The notes below the pieces were generated by a model. The model had not been told where the DNA came from, did no database searches, and saw only the letters and a program-made list of their open reading frames with translations. The translations under genes and the position numbers were made by a program. A DNA stretch of 64,000 nucleotides from Candidatus Hatepunaea meridiana (GTDB taxonomy: Bacteria > Electryoneota > AABM5-125-24 > Hatepunaeales > Hatepunaeaceae), in contig JAVCDD010000015.1 of assembly GCA_030765125.1 (NCBI GenBank), positions 2,939-66,938 on the forward strand, written 5' to 3'. Positions 1-8,413 of the stretch are shown piece by piece (positions within the stretch are counted from its first letter, which is position 1; each line of letters begins with the position of its first letter).

Positions 1-1030
1 ATTGGAAATTACGATCTGAGCAATGTGCTGTTCCTCATCCACCCCGCAGATCACTGCCCCTTCATCGCCATAGAGCAGTTCACCATCAGAGTTTACACGT
101 TGAGTATAGATATCTTTATTGCTCCTGCCAAAATCCCTATAATTAACCCATACGACAAATGCACCGCCACTCCTGTCTGAACAGATTTTAGGTAATTCTT
201 GATATTCTCGATTATTGCAGACGATTATGCCATCACCCCAGAGAAGTTCTCCTTCTTCGGTGACACGCTGCACCCATACATTGTAGTCATCATCGTCTCT
301 GCCATCCTGCCAACAGACGATCATTCCACCGTCACCGTCTGAGCATAAGTTTTGTTGACGTTGACCTCCTACAGCTCTGACGATAGGGATACCGTTCTCT
401 TCCCAGTTGCGATCCATTACTCCATCACCGGTAACGTGCATTCCATAGATATCACCCATGTCACCTCTTCGCCCATCCCTCCAGATAATGAAGCAGCCAT
501 TGTTTGAATCTTCGAGTACACGAATATCGTCGGATCTGCAGTGTTGTACAGCACAAACGGGAACACCGCGTTGATTTTCACCCCAGAGTCGTTCGCCTCT
601 CGAATTGATCTTTGTACAGTGAATGCTGCCATCTATCTCAACACTGAAATTCTCGCTGAAATCCTCCCAGGCAACGAACCAGCCGCCGTCGGAACAGGCG
701 CAAACGACGGGATTAACCTGCGCTCTGGTTGTATCAGCGACCAGGATGCCGTTTTCCCCGAATTTGAGTTCGCCGTCGGTATCGATGACCTGCATATAAA
801 TCCCATAGTCCCCGCTACGGCAGTCCGCCCAAACGAGAGCCACCTCCCCCGCGAGTTCCCCTTCAATACGGCTGGCGCCGGATCGAAACCATTCCGTATG
901 CCATCCCTGACGCACAGCGATCCCATTTTCAGGCGACCATCGGCGGAAGTTATCTTGAGTGAATGCGATAGAGGGAAGAAGGATTGATAAGACGAGAATT
1001 AAATTGAGGTTTTTTACAAATCTTGACATA
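1..1030 (-). CDS. secreted tandem-repeat protein (beta-propeller-like repeats), 3'-truncated by window edge
   Basis: Manual minus-strand translation from the ATG at 1028-1030 runs uninterrupted to position 1. It begins with signal peptide MSRFVKNLNLILVLSILLPSIAF, then ~55-aa repeats with recurring W-x-D-x-R-x-G-D...DIY...QRV and CSDG-GG motifs. It is absent from the ORF track because no stop lies inside the window. Confidence 0.5.
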
Positions 1031-1141
1031 ACGAAAATCTCCTTTATACAACGATTTGTTATTCAGCAGCGAAGGCGTCTCTGCCTGTGGGATTGAGCAA
1101 GTTACAAGTAATCACAACATTACAACATTACAACATAATCT

Positions 1142-1611
1142 CTATGATTTAAACACCTTTGTCAACTTCAGAAACATCCCTTTACCGACCATTTTATCCG
1201 CTGCACACATTAGGCGCTTGACAATCTCCAGAATGTCCCCTTCCCCAGCCCAATTACGCTGGACAACTTCAGGAGCAACATTGTTCATGAGGTTAAATAT
1301 AATAAACAAATATGTTAATGTCAAGTTCTTATTTAAGCGCTTATGGGGATTAAGCCCGTCAGAAAATTTATTGGTGAAGTAAAGTAAGCGATAGCTATGA
1401 GCAATTGGGCTTTATGTCTGGGGGGTACGTCTTTGTCAAGAGACAACTTCACAAAGAGATGAAAAAGATCAGGGGCTAATACAGCGAGTTCTATCCATTT
1501 ATGATCGGCATATTTTTTACCTCGGAAGCCTTTGATGCGGTTTCTTAGTTTTTGGTAGAAATCTCGTTGCTGTGAGGGAATTTCTTTGGATATTGACTCA
1601 TTGAGGGGCAT
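1142..1611 (-). pseudogene. disrupted DUF1232 (YkvA-like) paralog; frameshift splits it into ORFs 1333..1611 and 1142..1324
   Basis: The 92-aa ORF matches the N-terminus of the 2155..2652 protein (SKEIPSQQRDFYQKLRNRIKG...WIELAVLAPDLFHLFVKLSLDKD). The 60-aa ORF matches its C-terminus (NNVAPEVVQRNWAGEGDILEIVKRLMCAADKMVGKG), in a different frame. Confidence 0.5.
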
Positions 1612-1894
1612 CTGTCTTCTCTAATTAAGGTCTACTGAAAAACTCCAATGTTTAATAATAATTTCCTCATTTTGTCATTCCTTTGGAAGTAAATTTCAAG
1701 GATGCTATTACCGGAGTGTCGAAGCTTGCTTCGGCAATGTTCAAGCAAGCTTGAGCACTCCGATTTTCATGCTCCGTGGTGTAGGACGTAACATGAATAT
1801 TCCAGCGAAATAAGCTGATCGAGAATGACCAATCAGTAGCGTCAGGCGGGAACGCCTGACGGTTAATTGTACTGACAAATAAGGTTGTCATAAA

Positions 1895-1992
1895 CTCTAA
1901 CCCGCTGACAGACGCCTCCGTCTGACAGTTAAGTGCATGCTATAACTATATATTGCTGTCAGACGGGGGAGTCTGACAACGGGTTGATTTAT
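1895..1992. repeat. GTCAGACG-type double-hairpin element
   Basis: cccgctgacagacgcctccgtctgacagttaag ... gctgtcagacgggggagtctgacaacgggtt; homologous to the insert at 23113..23192. Confidence 0.5.
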
Positions 1993-2154
1993 GTGCTAAC
2001 CTATCGTGTCTGTACAGTCAATATATAGATATCTATCAACATAAACGACAGGCAGGGGGCCTGTCGCTCCCGGTTTCCTGTTTTGGACATCCTGTTTCAT
2101 TGATATGACAGAAGATGATCAAAATTCCAGTAAATCGGGATTCTTGCAGTAGAC

Positions 2155-2652
2155 CTAATTAGTTTCAGGTACTTTGGTATCAGTCTTCGTCTTTAATAAA
2201 TTAACCAACCTTCGGTATAATCCTTCACCGACCATTTTATCAGCATCATTCATCAGCTTCTTGATAAGCTCCAGGATATCATCTTCACCTGCCCAATTTC
2301 GCTGTATAACTTCAGGCTCAACGTTGTTCAAGAGGTCATTCAAGACATAAGCCGCGACAACGATGTCGTCGAGTAAACCTACAATGGGGATGAAATCCGG
2401 TATTAAGTCTATTGGGGAAGCAAAGTAGGTGATAGCAAAGGCTAATTTTACCTTCTTTTTAGTTGGTATGTCCTTGTCAAGAGATAACTTAACTAAAAGA
2501 TGAAAAAGGTCGGGAGCTAAAACAACGTATTCTATCCACTTATTATCCGAATGTTTTCCGCTTTTCCAACCTTTAATGCGGTTTCTTAGTTTATGATAGA
2601 AATCGCGTTTTTGTACTGGGATTTCTCTGGTTTTTAATTCTTCTTCAAACAT
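2155..2652 (-). CDS. DUF1232 (YkvA-like) family membrane protein
   Basis: 165-aa ORF with the DUF1232 signature FASPIDLIPDFIPIVGLLDD; intact tandem paralog of the disrupted copy at 1142..1611. Confidence 0.6.
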   Translation of the reverse strand: MFEEELKTREIPVQKRDFYHKLRNRIKGWKSGKHSDNKWIEYVVLAPDLFHLLVKLSLDKDIPTKKKVKLAFAITYFASPIDLIPDFIPIVGLLDDIVVAAYVLNDLLNNVEPEVIQRNWAGEDDILELIKKLMNDADKMVGEGLYRRLVNLLKTKTDTKVPETN

Positions 2653-2764
2653 AATACTGAGTAGTTCCTATTATTTAGAGGGCAGAGACACTTTCCCTGC
2701 TCGTGATATTACCTGACGTTTTAATGTGTTGTCGGGCGCCATCACCCGACAACACAACCATTCA

Positions 2765-3706
2765 TCAAGTCCGCTCATCCACTTCAACAACCGCAGTCTT
2801 AACGGCTTTCAGTGAATTATCCAGCAGCGCTTGTTCGTCGCCGGTCAGCTTGACTTCAACTATTTTCTCTACACCGCCAGCGCCGATGACAACCGGTACG
2901 CCGAGGTAGTAACCATCGATGCCATACTCGCCTTCAAGATAAGCTGCCGCCGTAAGGACGCTTTTCTTGTCTAACAGGTAAGCCTCCGCCATCATAAGCG
3001 ATGAAGCTGCCGGTGAGAAGAAGGCTGAGCCGTTGCCGAGCAGTTTGACGATCTCGGTGCCTGCCTCGCGAGTGCGAGTAACGATAGCGTCAATCTTCTC
3101 TTGTGACATTACTTCGTTCAAGGGAATACCGCCAACCGTGCACAGCCTGGGCAGCGGAACCATTGTCGGACCGTGTCCGCCGAGCACCGTCGCTGCGACG
3201 TCTTCAACTGAAACGTCCAGTTCCATTGCCACGAATGAACGGAAGCGAGATGTGTCCAGCACTCCAGCCATACCGCATACCATATTCTTTGAAAACCCAG
3301 TGATCTTCTTAAAGCCATAGACCATCGAATCCAGTGGGTTGGTAACGATAATGCAGAAGGCGTCGGGGCAATATTTCTTTACATTATTTGCAACGTTGCT
3401 GATGATCTTGACGTTGACGTCGAGCAGATCGTCGCGGGTCATACCCGGTTTGCGGGGCAGCCCAGCAGTAACGATAACTACGTCCGAACCTGCGATGTCC
3501 GCATAGTCAGATGTGCCGGTTAGTTTAGCGTCATAACCGCCAACAGCCTGCGACTCAGCGATGTCCAGCATCTTGCCCTTGACCATTCCCTCCATTTCGG
3601 GAATATCAAGCATTACTACGTCGCCTAATTGTTTCTGAGCACACATCAGCGCTTGAATGCCGCCAATTTGACCGCCGCCGATTAGTGTGATTTTCTTTCT
3701 TGCCAT
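2765..3706 (-). CDS. mdh: malate dehydrogenase (LDH-like NAD-dependent MDH)
   Basis: 313 aa with Rossmann motif [12 protein letters not shown]. Substrate-specificity loop [14 protein letters not shown] carries Arg, not Gln, which indicates MDH rather than LDH. LDH/MDH catalytic His region present. Confidence 0.9.
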
Positions 3707-3904
3707 TTTTTCTCCAGTTTTGTAAGAATTAAATTAATTGTTGTTTGATTGTTTGATTGCCGTATTGTTAAGCGCAGTATCTATTTATACGCCTTGCTTC
3801 GGTGACAAACACTATAAATAGTAACTATCTGTTCCTTTGAATTAATTGTATAAATAACCCGCCAGTTACCAACACGAAGACGATAGCCTGCCCCTATTTT
3901 AAGC

Positions 3905-4036
3905 TTAATTGCTCCAACTAGGAAAGGGATTGTTTTTCAACTCAACGATTTTACGGTCAACCTGTTGAATAACTTTATCGGTAAATTTTCGCATCTCGCG
4001 CTGGGCGCGAGGAGTAAATCTTACAATCCACCTCAA
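3905..4036 (-). pseudogene. truncated RelE/ParE-family toxin (N-terminal 43 codons only)
   Basis: A TTG start overlaps the stop of the upstream antitoxin ORF. Translation is LRWIVRFTPRAQREMRKFTDKVIQQVDRKIVELKNNPFPSWSN*, a typical RelE/ParE N-terminus that stops prematurely. Confidence 0.5.
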
Positions 4037-4239
4037 ACGGGACGACCTTCCTTGCGCAGTTCTTGTATAAGTGTATCGTAATCTATCGTTGGTTCACCTT
4101 GTTGAGAAGCGATAATCATTGCGTCTTCCAGATCTTCAAAAAGCGAATCATCGCCTAATAATTGACGAATCAGGTCATTCTTTTCCGGTTCTTCTAATTT
4201 CTTAACTATTCTCATTATGTCTTTTACTCGTTGAGTCAT
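4033..4239 (-). CDS. putative addiction-module antitoxin component (TIGR02574-like small protein)
   Basis: 68-aa acidic protein (KKLEEPEKNDLIRQLLGDDSLFEDLED) immediately upstream of the toxin fragment, with start/stop overlap. Confidence 0.45.
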   Translation of the reverse strand: MTQRVKDIMRIVKKLEEPEKNDLIRQLLGDDSLFEDLEDAMIIASQQGEPTIDYDTLIQELRKEGRPV

Positions 4240-4330
4240 TATTTACTCCATTGAATGGTGTTAACCGAAGTTAGAGCATCCTTCAGCCTCAAATAAGCGA
4301 TGTTATAACGGGGATCGTAAGATAATTCCA

Positions 4331-4540
4331 TTAGATTGACTTTCCTGACTGGTATTGCGAAATTAGCCTGCGAACTCTTGGAACCAGTTCATTAGGAATA
4401 TCTAACATACAAAAGCCATCGTGTTCATAAGCAGCTTCATCTTCGGCTACCGCTTCTTCTTCTGTTTGATTCTCGTAGTGAGATAGAACGCGGCGGACTC
4501 GATCTTCATCCCAACCGGGAGGGAATTTATTTTGTTTCAT
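4331..4540 (-). CDS. small conserved hypothetical protein (possible antitoxin-like)
   Basis: 69-aa ORF FPPGWDEDRVRRVLSHYENQTEEEAVAEDEAAYE; third small gene in the same minus-strand TA-like string. Confidence 0.35.
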   Translation of the reverse strand: MKQNKFPPGWDEDRVRRVLSHYENQTEEEAVAEDEAAYEHDGFCMLDIPNELVPRVRRLISQYQSGKSI

Positions 4541-4582
4541 TATTTTCTTCTTCGCCTCCGTCTTTTAAAGGCTAAGAACAAG

Positions 4583-5314
4583 TTAATCAGCAGGAGTAAG
4601 CCTCACATCAGGCACATCCATGTCTTCCCACCAGAGATTAGTAAGTTTGTTCCGTACAACTATTGAGTCCGTAAAACCCAATCTCCACATATAACTGTCG
4701 GACTTTGTAGGTACATCATAGACCACAACACACCTTGTCCACTCATTGGCACTGGCAAAAGTAGGCCAAGACGGATGGAGACTCTTCATAAATTGAGTGG
4801 GCTTATCAGCAGGGCTGCAATCCGACCAAGCTGGGTACTTGGGATCAGCCCTGAAAGGTCGACCTCCTGTGGATTTGAGGATGTCTGCATCAGTAACTCC
4901 TAATCTATGCAGATTGTCAAGTGACTCGTTGTAAGCATTAACCCTTTCAATATAACGCTTCTCAAGAATATTAGCCGCCTCATCGGAGCACTCATACTCC
5001 CGACCCTGCGAGTCCACCACATGCCAGGTCCAACCAGTAGTAACTAATGCCTTGTCTTTTGAATTATGAATTGCGTGGTAAACCACAAGAAACACACCCT
5101 CTGGAAAGACATTCTCCACTATTATTCCACGGTCAACCACCAAAGAGGTAACAAACTCGCAACCATAAACCTTATAGGTTAAAGAGCCAACGGACACCTC
5201 ATCATAGAGTCCCATTGTAAGTGTATCTTCTGCACCAGAAGTCGAGACAAGAAACAGAGTTACCAAGAACAGAATCATTCGGTACTTCATTCTTATCTCC
5301 TTACTGTAAATCAT
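4583..5314 (-). CDS. secreted hypothetical protein
   Basis: 243-aa ORF with N-terminal signal peptide (MKYRMILFLVTLFLVSTSGA); no recognisable catalytic motif. Confidence 0.5.
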   Translation of the reverse strand: MIYSKEIRMKYRMILFLVTLFLVSTSGAEDTLTMGLYDEVSVGSLTYKVYGCEFVTSLVVDRGIIVENVFPEGVFLVVYHAIHNSKDKALVTTGWTWHVVDSQGREYECSDEAANILEKRYIERVNAYNESLDNLHRLGVTDADILKSTGGRPFRADPKYPAWSDCSPADKPTQFMKSLHPSWPTFASANEWTRCVVVYDVPTKSDSYMWRLGFTDSIVVRNKLTNLWWEDMDVPDVRLTPAD

Positions 5315-5966
5315 GTGGATAAGAGCTGTATCTTCCTCCTGCTAAAATCAGTTCTTCATAGAACGGCATAAGCTTATTGAATACCCTTCGGTAATCTTTG
5401 GGTGTCTTTGTAATAGCCTCACTGATGTTCCAAAGTTTACCAATGAAAATGAATACAGGTTTACTATCTGGAGGAATTATGAATGTCTCTAAATCGATAT
5501 CTTCATTATACTTATGTTGAAATTGAGTTACAAAACCATTCTCTTTAACACAATTATAAAATGCATCCCTAAATGGCAATGGTGGTCTGATACAAAGAAA
5601 TGTCTGTAGTACTTGAAAAGCGGGAGGTTTTGGATTTACCTGTCTGCCTATCTGAAAGCCAAGTCCCACTCTTATAAATTCTGACCACATACCAATATTT
5701 AACTGAACTTGGTTCTGGTCTCCTCCAACATTAAATAAAAACCAATGTTTAGAAGAACCTCTGGGATGACCAAAAACCAGATCGTCTCTACTTCTCATTT
5801 TTTTTCTTACTATATGCTTCTCGAAATATTCTAGTTTAAATTCAGTAAAATTATCAAGTTCATTTCTGAGTTCGTTGATCTTATTTTCTAGTGGTTTAGG
5901 AATAGGTTTTTTCTTTTCCTGTTCCATTAATTCAAAATCTTCCTTGGTAAATGGTGAAAATGCCAT
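5301..5966 (-). CDS. hypothetical protein
   Basis: 221-aa ORF with a 14-nt overlap onto the downstream secreted protein gene; no recognisable motif. Confidence 0.45.
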   Translation of the reverse strand: MAFSPFTKEDFELMEQEKKKPIPKPLENKINELRNELDNFTEFKLEYFEKHIVRKKMRSRDDLVFGHPRGSSKHWFLFNVGGDQNQVQLNIGMWSEFIRVGLGFQIGRQVNPKPPAFQVLQTFLCIRPPLPFRDAFYNCVKENGFVTQFQHKYNEDIDLETFIIPPDSKPVFIFIGKLWNISEAITKTPKDYRRVFNKLMPFYEELILAGGRYSSYPHDLQ

Positions 5967-6027: not shown

Positions 6028-6267
6028 TCAATTTCCTGTTACAAACTCCACTACCTCAACCTCCCGCCTAACCGCAAATTCCCTACGATGTTGCATAATC
6101 CGGTCAATCTGATGCACCGTTTCTGCGGTCAGATAACTTTCGCTGCAGTTTGGGCAAGAGATTATCGGGACATTCTCTATCACAAGCAGATCTTCTCCCT
6201 CGTCATAAGTACGGGTTATATGGTGGATGCGAACGCGCTCTCTATCGCAATTATCGCATATCATCAA
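6028..6267 (-). CDS. YgiT-type (MqsA N-terminal-like) zinc-ribbon protein
   Basis: 79 aa with CDNC...CPNC (C-x2-C ... C-x2-C) spacing typical of the YgiT/MqsA zinc-binding domain; no HTH. Confidence 0.55.
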   Translation of the reverse strand: MMICDNCDRERVRIHHITRTYDEGEDLLVIENVPIISCPNCSESYLTAETVHQIDRIMQHRREFAVRREVEVVEFVTGN

Positions 6268-6291
6268 TCATATCCTCTTCAGTTTTCCGCT

Positions 6292-6762
6292 TTATCTTTC
6301 TAATTGAACAATACCGGCTTGATAGTCGCACACAAAGCGAAACTGGTTGATCAAATCACGTCCCAACACAGATGGGAGTCTGATAATGCGCGCAACTTCA
6401 TCGGGGGGCAGCCTATCTAAATCATGTTGTACAACCCATATATCTTGTCTAAAAACAACATTGCTTTCATTTGAAGCAAATTTGATGTCTACATTTTGCA
6501 ATTGAAATGATCGAACACTTCCTCCAATGCCAACAATAGGCAGAGAGGATGGCTTGAGTAACTCAACCGGAATATCCAATAGCCTGACATCACGATCCAA
6601 AAGGGTTGTACGAGATGCTCCTGTGTCTGCAAGAAGCCAAACTAATCCTTGAAAACCGGTGGAATTGAGATAAATAGCTAAATATGGTGCATTGCCAATA
6701 AAACGCCCCTGAATGATCACAGCACCATCTCTATAGGTTCTCGAGTAATATATTCGACACAC
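6292..6762 (-). CDS. retropepsin-like (clan AA) aspartic protease domain protein
   Basis: 156 aa with the active-site motif LLADTGASRTTLL (D-T-G-A). Size matches bacterial/archaeal standalone retropepsin families. Confidence 0.6.
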   Translation of the reverse strand: MCRIYYSRTYRDGAVIIQGRFIGNAPYLAIYLNSTGFQGLVWLLADTGASRTTLLDRDVRLLDIPVELLKPSSLPIVGIGGSVRSFQLQNVDIKFASNESNVVFRQDIWVVQHDLDRLPPDEVARIIRLPSVLGRDLINQFRFVCDYQAGIVQLER

Positions 6763-7022
6763 GTATGCGGTGGGTCTGGTAATTTGGACATCAGCCCTTC
6801 CAGATCCGGATCGCTGGCGATAATTTTACAATTCTTAACCGCAATCCACTGATCAGAATATTGCTCTAATAGGGTTTCTAAGTTATCGCTGATCCATAAG
6901 TGATCGGAACTAAATGTAAGCAATTCATCATTTAATGTCTCATTCAAGTTTACCTCCAAAGTTGAATTCCTAATTTTTCCCTTTACAAAAGCCATCTCCT
7001 TCTCCGCATTATCCAAAGACAA
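6717..7022 (-). CDS. hypothetical protein (overlaps protease gene by 46 nt)
   Basis: 101-aa ORF with no known motif; linked in an operon to the retropepsin and nucleotidyltransferase genes. Confidence 0.4.
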   Translation of the reverse strand: MSLDNAEKEMAFVKGKIRNSTLEVNLNETLNDELLTFSSDHLWISDNLETLLEQYSDQWIAVKNCKIIASDPDLEGLMSKLPDPPHTCVEYITREPIEMVL

Positions 7023-7314
7023 CTACACCATTTTCAGTGATCTCACGGGCTAAAGTAGTGGCAATAGGCTTAAACCGCTCAAGTTCTTCAGAAGTTAAGA
7101 TAAAAACATCCAATGACAACATAGAACTCATAAATAGCCTGTATATATCTAACTCTACGTCGCCTTTAGATTTATCACCGTCGTAAATAATCGCTAAGTC
7201 ATAATCGCTATCCAGTCGTGCATCACCCCGTGCCCTCGATCCGAATAGAAATATCTTAACCGGATTGATATATGCGGTTATCTTTTTAACTATTTCAGCA
7301 AGTTGAGGATCCAA
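7009..7314 (-). CDS. minimal nucleotidyltransferase (MNT-type antitoxin-like)
   Basis: 101 aa with FGSRARGDARLDSDYDLAII, the GS-x9-13-D-x-D pol-beta nucleotidyltransferase motif. Confidence 0.6.
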   Translation of the reverse strand: MDPQLAEIVKKITAYINPVKIFLFGSRARGDARLDSDYDLAIIYDGDKSKGDVELDIYRLFMSSMLSLDVFILTSEELERFKPIATTLAREITENGVVVFG

Positions 7315-8110: not shown

Positions 8111-8413
8111 TCACTGCGCATAAATCACCCTTGAGCTGTTGATGACGCTATCACGTATAATTGGCTTAAGACCATCTTTAACAACGAGATCAACTTTTCG
8201 TTTTAATAGATCACTAAGTGCATTTTGCATACCGGTCAGTTCAAAAAAACCTATTGATGCATCCTCCTCGAATTGAACAAGAAAGTCCACGTCGCTATCA
8301 GTGCGGAAGTCATCCCTAAGAACTGATCCGAATAGAGCCAGCTCGCGAACATAGTACTCTTGGCAGAGGCGTCTGATTGCTTTCATTGGTAGTTTTAGAT
8401 TAGGTATAATCAT
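8111..8413 (-). CDS. minimal nucleotidyltransferase (MNT-type)
   Basis: 100 aa with LFGSVLRDDFRTDSDVDFLV, the GS...D-x-D nucleotidyltransferase motif. Confidence 0.6.
   Translation of the reverse strand: MIIPNLKLPMKAIRRLCQEYYVRELALFGSVLRDDFRTDSDVDFLVQFEEDASIGFFELTGMQNALSDLLKRKVDLVVKDGLKPIIRDSVINSSRVIYAQ

Follow-up and report, generated by a model that had tools for sequence, protein, structure and literature searches.

A conserved DUF5678–retropepsin gene pair and its neighbours in an accessory island of Candidatus Hatepunaea meridiana

Gene content of the locus

The stretch of Candidatus Hatepunaea meridiana DNA analysed here (phylum Electryoneota, FCB group; 64,000 nucleotides (nt), referred to as the window) carries at positions 6028–7314 four minus-strand open reading frames (ORFs), all co-directional, which fill the interval and encode, in order of transcription, a minimal nucleotidyltransferase (MNT), a protein of the DUF5678 family, a retropepsin-like aspartic protease and a YgiT-type zinc-ribbon protein. 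A first-pass annotation made from the sequence had described these genes as one cluster resembling toxin-antitoxin or abortive-infection cassettes. Its domain identities hold for all four proteins with two amendments, namely that the gene left as unknown encodes a DUF5678 protein and that the protease is recognised via its fold, motifs and relatives. The two middle genes constitute a conserved pair that spans many bacterial phyla and extends to archaea, which is the main subject of this analysis, while the two outer genes lie outside the conserved unit. The features of the locus are as follows.

7009..7314, minus strand: MNT-type nucleotidyltransferase with a GS...DxD signature (Pfam Polbeta and NTP_transf_2), without a HEPN partner; a neighbour outside the conserved unit
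6953..6957, minus strand: Shine-Dalgarno site GGAGG, 5 nt 5' of the DUF5678 TTG start
6717..6947, minus strand: DUF5678-family gene, 76 amino acids (aa), start TTG 6947; first gene of the conserved pair
6717..6720, minus strand: GTGA junction, with the protease start lying over the DUF5678 stop; NTGA in 21/21 related loci inspected
6292..6720, minus strand: predicted aspartic protease of retropepsin-like type (clan AA); soluble, 142 aa, start GTG 6720; second gene of the conserved pair
6619..6627, minus strand: codons GAC ACA GGA for the catalytic Asp32-Thr33-Gly34, read directly from the sequence
6028..6267, minus strand: YgiT-type zinc-ribbon gene, 78–79 aa, two CxxC pairs and no helix-turn-helix (HTH); TIGR03831; outside the conserved unit

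Gene boundaries within the pair were set by comparison with homologues. Protease homologues are 142–143 aa long, placing the start of the window gene at GTG 6720, where it overlaps the stop codon of the DUF5678 gene by 4 nt (GTGA). For the DUF5678 protein, homologues have a length of 76 aa and start 5–8 nt past a GGAGG, as does the window gene when read from TTG 6947, which has GGAGGTAAAC directly 5' of it; alternative starts are ATG 6995 in the NCBI annotation (92 aa) and TTG 7022 in the maximal ORF. Almost every related locus has a GGAGG at matching spacing, with no conservation of the sequence lying 5' of it. Because the homologues fix the two starts at GTG 6720 and TTG 6947, the gene overlaps of 46 and 14 nt reported in the first-pass annotation are artefacts of maximal ORFs, and homology supports in their place a 4-nt overlap within the pair and a gap of 61 nt between the nucleotidyltransferase stop (7009) and the DUF5678 start. 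The GTGA overlap suggests that translation of the DUF5678 and protease genes is coupled. Downstream, the protease and YgiT genes are separated by 24 nt, and no terminator-like site was seen between the four genes. A promoter-like site at 7037..7008 was also considered and set aside as scoring no better than chance.

The protease sequence contains the motif LLADTGASRTTLL, confirming the earlier reading. More specifically, LLADTGAS occupies residues 28–35, of which D32, T33, G34 and A35 are invariant in 18 close homologues, while GIGGS (residues 64–68) and VLGRD (118–122) are invariant or nearly so among relatives and correspond to IGGIGG and IIGRN of human immunodeficiency virus protease. The same conservation extends through 261 homologue clusters, nearly all with proteins of 142–143 aa, in which DTGAS, GIGGS and LGRD do not vary. 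When 1.8 billion representative proteins were searched with a profile, 426 clusters were returned, and 53 relatives with 25–45% identity to the window protease were sampled from these (family counts are given per 54). D32, G34, the GxGG flap and PS..G.D are kept at 90% or more in the sampled distant relatives. The context of the catalytic aspartate, the loss of which the first-pass annotation had named as a ground for refutation, is thus intact in close and distant homologues alike.

Many of the distant relatives reach the cut-offs of curated protease models, including Asp_protease_2 (48/54), gag-asp_proteas (46/54) and RVP (30/54) as well as the NCBIfam families TIGR02281 (32/54) and TIGR03698 (12/54). 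The window protease itself reaches no curated Pfam or NCBIfam model; its best score is 15.6 bits against Asp_protease_2 (E 0.027, cut-off 24.3), and neither TIGR03698 nor TIGR02281 gives a match. Of the profile searches that the first-pass annotation had proposed, those for YgiT (TIGR03831), NTP_transf_2 and DUF5678 came out above cut-off and those for the protease (Asp_protease_2 and TIGR03698) did not. A profile search of PDB sequences with the protease also stayed below threshold, the feline immunodeficiency virus protease being found at E 0.09. As no direct model match reached threshold, the assignment was made through the fold, the invariant motifs and the distant relatives. The structure predicted for the window protein is a retropepsin fold with an extra helix at residues 106–113, and on this combination of motifs and modelled fold the protein is a predicted retropepsin-like clan AA protease. 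It is soluble, with no hydrophobic segment. A retropepsin with a single DTG must act as a homodimer, and by analogy we infer that the window protease works as a cytoplasmic homodimer.

The product of the upstream gene, formerly listed as unknown, reaches the Pfam model DUF5678 (PF18929) with 26.6 bits (cut-off 23.2) and is named 'DUF5678 domain-containing' by NCBI; the partners in distant pairs also reach the Pfam threshold. Its structural model (predicted local distance difference test score of 80) comprises a helical hairpin and a small beta-beta-alpha-beta unit, with low confidence for the last ~9 residues in the monomer model. The tail, VE[YF][IV]T-x-[EK]-x-[IL][ED][LM][IV]L-COOH, is kept to the C-terminal Leu in relatives at 22–33% identity. 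No enzymatic or membrane-active features were recognisable in the protein. One DUF5678 homologue, P0183 (148 aa), has an extended N-terminus (VVICKGVVKDNVVVLEENACLPDGAEVEVRVLP...) which resembles AF2212/DUF104-type antitoxins, and gene calling may have fused this protein to an antitoxin encoded upstream. The sole candidate for a DUF5678–protease fusion, P0241, was rejected on account of an N-terminal part consisting of low-complexity junk.

A mobile two-gene operon in many bacterial phyla and archaea

A locus scan with one genome per species recovered 22 protease loci from about a dozen phyla. These include Actinomycetota-like Hakubella, Chloroflexota, Zixibacteria, Sumerlaeota, Gemmatimonadota, Thermodesulfobacteriota, Clostridiales, Planctomycetota, Verrucomicrobiota, Poribacteria and Ignavibacteria, among others. 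In tblastn searches of these loci with the window proteins, the protease gene was directly preceded by a DUF5678 gene in all 22, and an NTGA junction joins the two genes in each of the 21 loci in which it was inspected. The association extends to distant relatives with a protease identity of 26–38%, for which a Pfam-positive DUF5678 gene was found directly upstream in 6/6 informative cases, one of them a metagenome-assembled genome (MAG) of Bathyarchaeia; a seventh distant relative, located at the end of its contig, gives no information on pairing. The identities of the two proteins co-vary pairwise, with r = 0.66 in the close subfamily and r = 0.95 overall, and mean identity is 73% for the protease and 62% for DUF5678.

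Copies of the pair in different phyla are 61–75% identical, and the Shine-Dalgarno site of the pair marks the exact point at which sequence conservation sets in. Its surroundings vary from locus to locus: the 125 flanking ORFs matched 133 Pfam families, none of them in more than three loci. A 690-kb contig (L105) carries three divergent pairs of a small gene and a retropepsin gene within 5.4 kb (994–5344), two of them plus-strand and one minus-strand, the first of the small genes (994–1236) falling below the Pfam DUF5678 threshold. Toxin-antitoxin genes are occasional neighbours. At one locus (L103) the pair adjoins ParE/ribbon-helix-helix (RHH) and PIN-like DUF3368/UPF0175 modules, and genes for AbiEii-type AAA_21, MNT and HEPN proteins lie near it in several others. 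Taken together, these comparisons show that the pair has the genomic signature of a self-contained, horizontally mobile two-gene operon that occurs in archaea as well as in a wide range of bacterial phyla.

Two further contexts of the pair stand apart. In a single metagenomic lineage (L108:1606–5432, also L109 and L110) it is located between an mcsA-like gene with a UVR domain and the genes mcsB (ATP:guanido phosphotransferase) and clpC, and thus inside the operon for arginine phosphorylation and ClpC protein quality control. This setting could have arisen by chance insertion or could reflect a link in function. In Ca. Hakubella (L001:40–3486, minus strand) the pair adjoins the gene for the large subunit of a class I/II ribonucleotide reductase, which is split by an intein carrying a LAGLIDADG endonuclease domain.

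The outer genes of the window cluster do not share this conservation. A YgiT gene is next to the protease gene in 0/22 loci, and none of the ORFs downstream of the protease in these loci has even one CxxC, which leaves no zinc-ribbon ORF among them. The YgiT protein of the window matches TIGR03831 (YgiT_finger) with 46.6 bits (cut-off 20.2) and contains CDNC and CPNC; it fails the full MqsA model TIGR03830 (22.6 bits, cut-off 61.8) and has no C-terminal HTH. Its own relatives point to a different partner. Of 80 metagenomic YgiT relatives with 49–64% identity, 59 carry a conserved gene of ~93 aa for a DUF4258 protein (Pfam E 1e-13). In 50 loci an ORF was called next to YgiT, and there the DUF4258 gene is positioned just upstream of it. 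A protease gene upstream of YgiT was found among the 80 only in a 100%-identical contig of the same organism. No DUF4258 gene or remnant was found in the window.

The nucleotidyltransferase is similarly detached from the pair. With scores of 49.1 bits for Polbeta (cut-off 26.9) and 48 bits for NTP_transf_2 (cut-off 21) and the signature FGSRARGDARLDSDYD, its domain assignment is clear, and it remains below the MntA equivalog NF047752 (39.8 bits, cut-off 60). A nucleotidyltransferase gene occurs near the pair in 2/22 loci, just one of them co-directional and the other on the opposite strand. Its relatives on plasmids overlap annotated HEPN genes; an adjacent HEPN/HepT gene is absent in the window, where the next gene downstream is the DUF5678 gene. 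A second minimal nucleotidyltransferase, located at 8111–8413 on the minus strand (NTP_transf_2 E 2e-15; PADLOC PDC-S09 E 4e-28), likewise has no adjacent HEPN or DUF86 gene and is 37% identical over 62 residues to that at 7009..7314.

Gene-neighbourhood conservation, which the first-pass annotation had named as a check on its cluster, thus divides it: two of the four genes are not co-conserved, while DUF5678 and the protease are in 22/22 close and 6/6 distant cases. As YgiT and the nucleotidyltransferase are not co-conserved with the protease, we reject a four-gene system. The two outer genes are best read as unrelated orphan genes of toxin-antitoxin type, gathered in the same accessory island.

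Damage to the pair falls mainly on the protease gene, which is disrupted in 6/22 loci (27%) compared with 1/22 (L009) for the DUF5678 gene. The lesions comprise nonsense mutations (L007, L009, L017), a frameshift together with a change of DTG to DTS (L019), two frameshifts (L022) and a deletion of the DTG region (L020). In five loci a broken protease gene accompanies an intact DUF5678 gene. We regard this asymmetry as a hint of protease toxicity, to be set against the statistical considerations given below.

Possible roles of the pair and its relation to known systems

We posit that the pair is a mobile module of toxin-antitoxin or abortive-infection character in which the DUF5678 protein controls a cytoplasmic aspartic protease, a reading drawn from comparative genomics to which we assign a probability of roughly 0.45. 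According to this proposal, the cytoplasmic protease homodimer would be the effector or toxin of the module, and the co-translated DUF5678 protein would bind and restrain it, probably through its conserved C-terminal tail. The tail might either fill the cleft that receives the substrate or cover the N/C-terminal beta-sheet at which the dimer forms. Were the partner lost or titrated away, the protease would be released and could cleave targets in the cell.

The pair shares a number of features with type II toxin-antitoxin systems. Its two genes are small and co-directional and overlap at the stop and start codons, its distribution is patchy and shaped by horizontal transfer, and it has variable neighbours, occurs in several copies, decays frequently and clusters with toxin-antitoxin genes. 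It differs from most such systems in that no DNA-binding domain is recognisable in DUF5678, the putative antitoxin. The toxin-antitoxin or abortive-infection likeness noted in the first-pass annotation is reasonable, and the four genes do not form one cassette (YgiT 0/22, nucleotidyltransferase 2/22).

Three weak pointers indicate that the protease is the toxin-like member, firstly the disruption counts (6/22 versus 1/22), secondly its higher conservation (73% versus 62%) and thirdly a similarity to PDC-M08B. The latter is a PADLOC model of ~127 positions which aligns over the region from the DTG to the C-terminus of the protease family; relatives score E 1e-5 to 2e-4 and the window protease E 0.0076, a remote similarity. 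Given that this model aligns with the protease family, a retropepsin-like protein has already been flagged as a candidate defence component. PDC-M08 is an unvalidated candidate defence system in PADLOC, no paper on it was found in the literature, and the DUF5678 partners match no PADLOC model, the PDC-M08A models included. A more far-reaching version of our proposal, in which the pair represents a new and widespread class in bacteria and archaea combining a homodimeric aspartic protease toxin with a DNA-binding-free tail inhibitor of the active site or of dimerisation, is at present doubtful.

Several observations weigh against a toxin-like role. The asymmetry of disruption is not statistically significant (binomial estimate about 0.12–0.23) with the two-fold greater length of the protease gene taken into account, and MAG assembly errors could add to the count of broken proteases. 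No conserved promoter or operator was found upstream of the pair in related loci. No HTH, RHH, AbrB or other recognisable DNA-binding domain was matched by the DUF5678 protein, and its model has no structural relative that we could find; most type II antitoxins carry a DNA-binding domain, and not every toxin-antitoxin family does. A tblastn search of plasmid and phage collections with the protease gave no match, and neither DUF5678 nor the protease has a match in PHROGs. The characterised bacterial retropepsin-like enzymes (APRc, RimB and the Pseudomonas Rlo proteins) are not toxins, and we know of no toxin that is an aspartic protease. Lastly, the position of the pair inside an mcsA–mcsB–clpC operon in one lineage suits protein quality control as well as it suits chance insertion.

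The strongest alternative is a dedicated pair with a physiological, non-toxic role, with DUF5678 serving as an activator, an adaptor, or a substrate or pro-protein in regulated proteolysis or quality control. We consider this unlikely, while giving it serious weight. Strict pairing and co-variation suit any obligate partnership, and a partner without a recognisable DNA-binding domain is equally in keeping with a non-toxic role, as is the embedding of the pair between mcsA and mcsB–clpC in L108–L110. There is also a precedent in RimB of the Pseudomonas RimABK complex, a small cytoplasmic retropepsin-like protease of the DUF785 type with partners in the same operon (PMC11957791), to which the window protease is alike in being a small cytoplasmic retropepsin-like protein with a same-operon partner; the RimB paper also states that further proteins take part in the case of the bacterial A2-type peptidases characterised (PMC11957791). 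A housekeeping function is harder to reconcile with copies that are 61–75% identical over a dozen phyla amid wholly unrelated neighbours, with several copies on one contig, with the disruption of 27% of copies and with the co-location with toxin-antitoxin genes, and the mcsA/mcsB context is limited to one lineage. Cross-phylum identity, multiple copies, decay and toxin-antitoxin neighbours therefore argue for a selfish accessory module rather than a housekeeping one.

The polarity of the pair could also be reversed, with DUF5678 as the harmful component and the protease as an antidote that cleaves it, for example at the conserved tail. The low-confidence conserved tail could indeed be a cleavage site, and a toxin-first gene order occurs in other families such as the DUF4258–YgiT pairs. 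We judge this arrangement improbable, given that an un-neutralised toxin should not be tolerated in the five loci with a broken protease and an intact DUF5678 gene, that the protease is the more conserved partner, and that DUF5678 is without enzymatic or membrane-active features. Still weaker is a four-gene toxin-antitoxin or abortive-infection cassette of nucleotidyltransferase, DUF5678, protease and YgiT, which is very hard to credit in view of the counts at related loci (YgiT 0/22, nucleotidyltransferase 2/22) and the separate associations of the outer genes with DUF4258 (59/80) and, on plasmids, with overlapping HEPN genes, even though the four genes are co-directional, tightly packed (24 and 61 nt) and lack a terminator-like site between them, on which grounds they may be co-transcribed in this organism.

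Free-standing prokaryotic retropepsin-like proteases of the COG5550/TIGR03698 type have been catalogued for ~25 years, essentially without an assigned function, and have long been discussed with respect to the origin of retroviral and Ddi1-type proteases. The prokaryotic single-domain clan AA peptidases, or 'pSNCAPs', comprise the AF_0612 family (COG5550/TIGR03698) and COG3577/TIGR02281; distant relatives of the window protease match TIGR02281 and TIGR03698, whereas the window protease itself matches neither. On these families 'little is known' (PMC2642776), and none of the papers found on single-domain clan AA families mentions a conserved DUF5678 partner gene. A further point of comparison is APRc, or ApRick, of Rickettsia conorii (PDB 5c9b, 5c9f), which has ~20% identity to the window protease; the latter differs in being soluble, in belonging to a two-gene mobile module and in having the extra predicted helix at residues 106–113. 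No paper on DUF5678 in a prokaryotic context, nor one on a retropepsin-like toxin-antitoxin or defence pair, was found in the searchable literature. The DUF5678–retropepsin pair is thus apparently undescribed, and the earlier statement that the combination is not a described system stands for this pair within the searchable literature. As for APRc, it is reportedly tied to a membrane-embedded N-terminal region and is said to process surface autotransporters.

These comparisons indicate that a large branch of the free-standing retropepsin-like proteases is strictly coupled to DUF5678 and moves with it as a cassette between phyla and domains. The pairing offers a testable hypothesis, that of a protease effector under the control of a cognate partner, which would also give a DUF family a function. 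Were the protease a toxin or defence effector, aspartic proteolysis would join the known mechanisms of toxin-antitoxin and abortive-infection systems, and free-standing prokaryotic retropepsin-like proteases would acquire a role in genetic conflict. DUF5678 would then be a natural protein inhibitor of a retropepsin, with a bearing on the origin of retroviral-type proteases. For annotation, the locus illustrates that tightly packed, toxin-antitoxin-like genes in an accessory island need not be one system.

Surroundings of the locus

The four genes lie in an island of small accessory genes which is slightly AT-richer than its surroundings (a mild GC dip) and is bounded by mdh and rplU/rpmA. Neighbouring genes of the locus are mdh and those encoding L21/L27, a CitMHS transporter, QueA, SDR and PBP1. 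Neither flanking inverted repeats nor Rfam matches were found at the locus. The window holds one intact copy of the pair, with no further copy of the DUF5678 or protease gene elsewhere. The earlier conclusion that the protease gene is not part of a retroelement is borne out by the scan of ORFs of at least 120 aa between 1 and 19.5 kb, among which there was no reverse transcriptase or integrase.

Directly 3' of the YgiT gene are two overlapping minus-strand ORFs of 221 aa (5301–5966) and 243 aa (4583–5314). The former has no match in Pfam, NCBIfam, PADLOC or PHROGs, and the latter, which starts with a signal-peptide-like N-terminus, has none in Pfam or PADLOC, the two libraries scanned. Further along, at 3905–4239 on the minus strand, a 68-aa ORF and, after it, an overlapping one of 43 aa are both without a Pfam match. 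The 43-aa ORF (MRWIVRFTPRAQREMRKF...) resembles the N-terminus of a RelE/ParE-type toxin, and the two are probably a decayed toxin-antitoxin pair. Decay is also apparent near the beginning of the window, where a 92-aa ORF at 1333–1611 (minus strand) is a truncated paralogue of a 165-aa DUF1232 protein encoded at 2155–2652 (minus strand); their common N-terminal sequence suggests a local duplication followed by decay.

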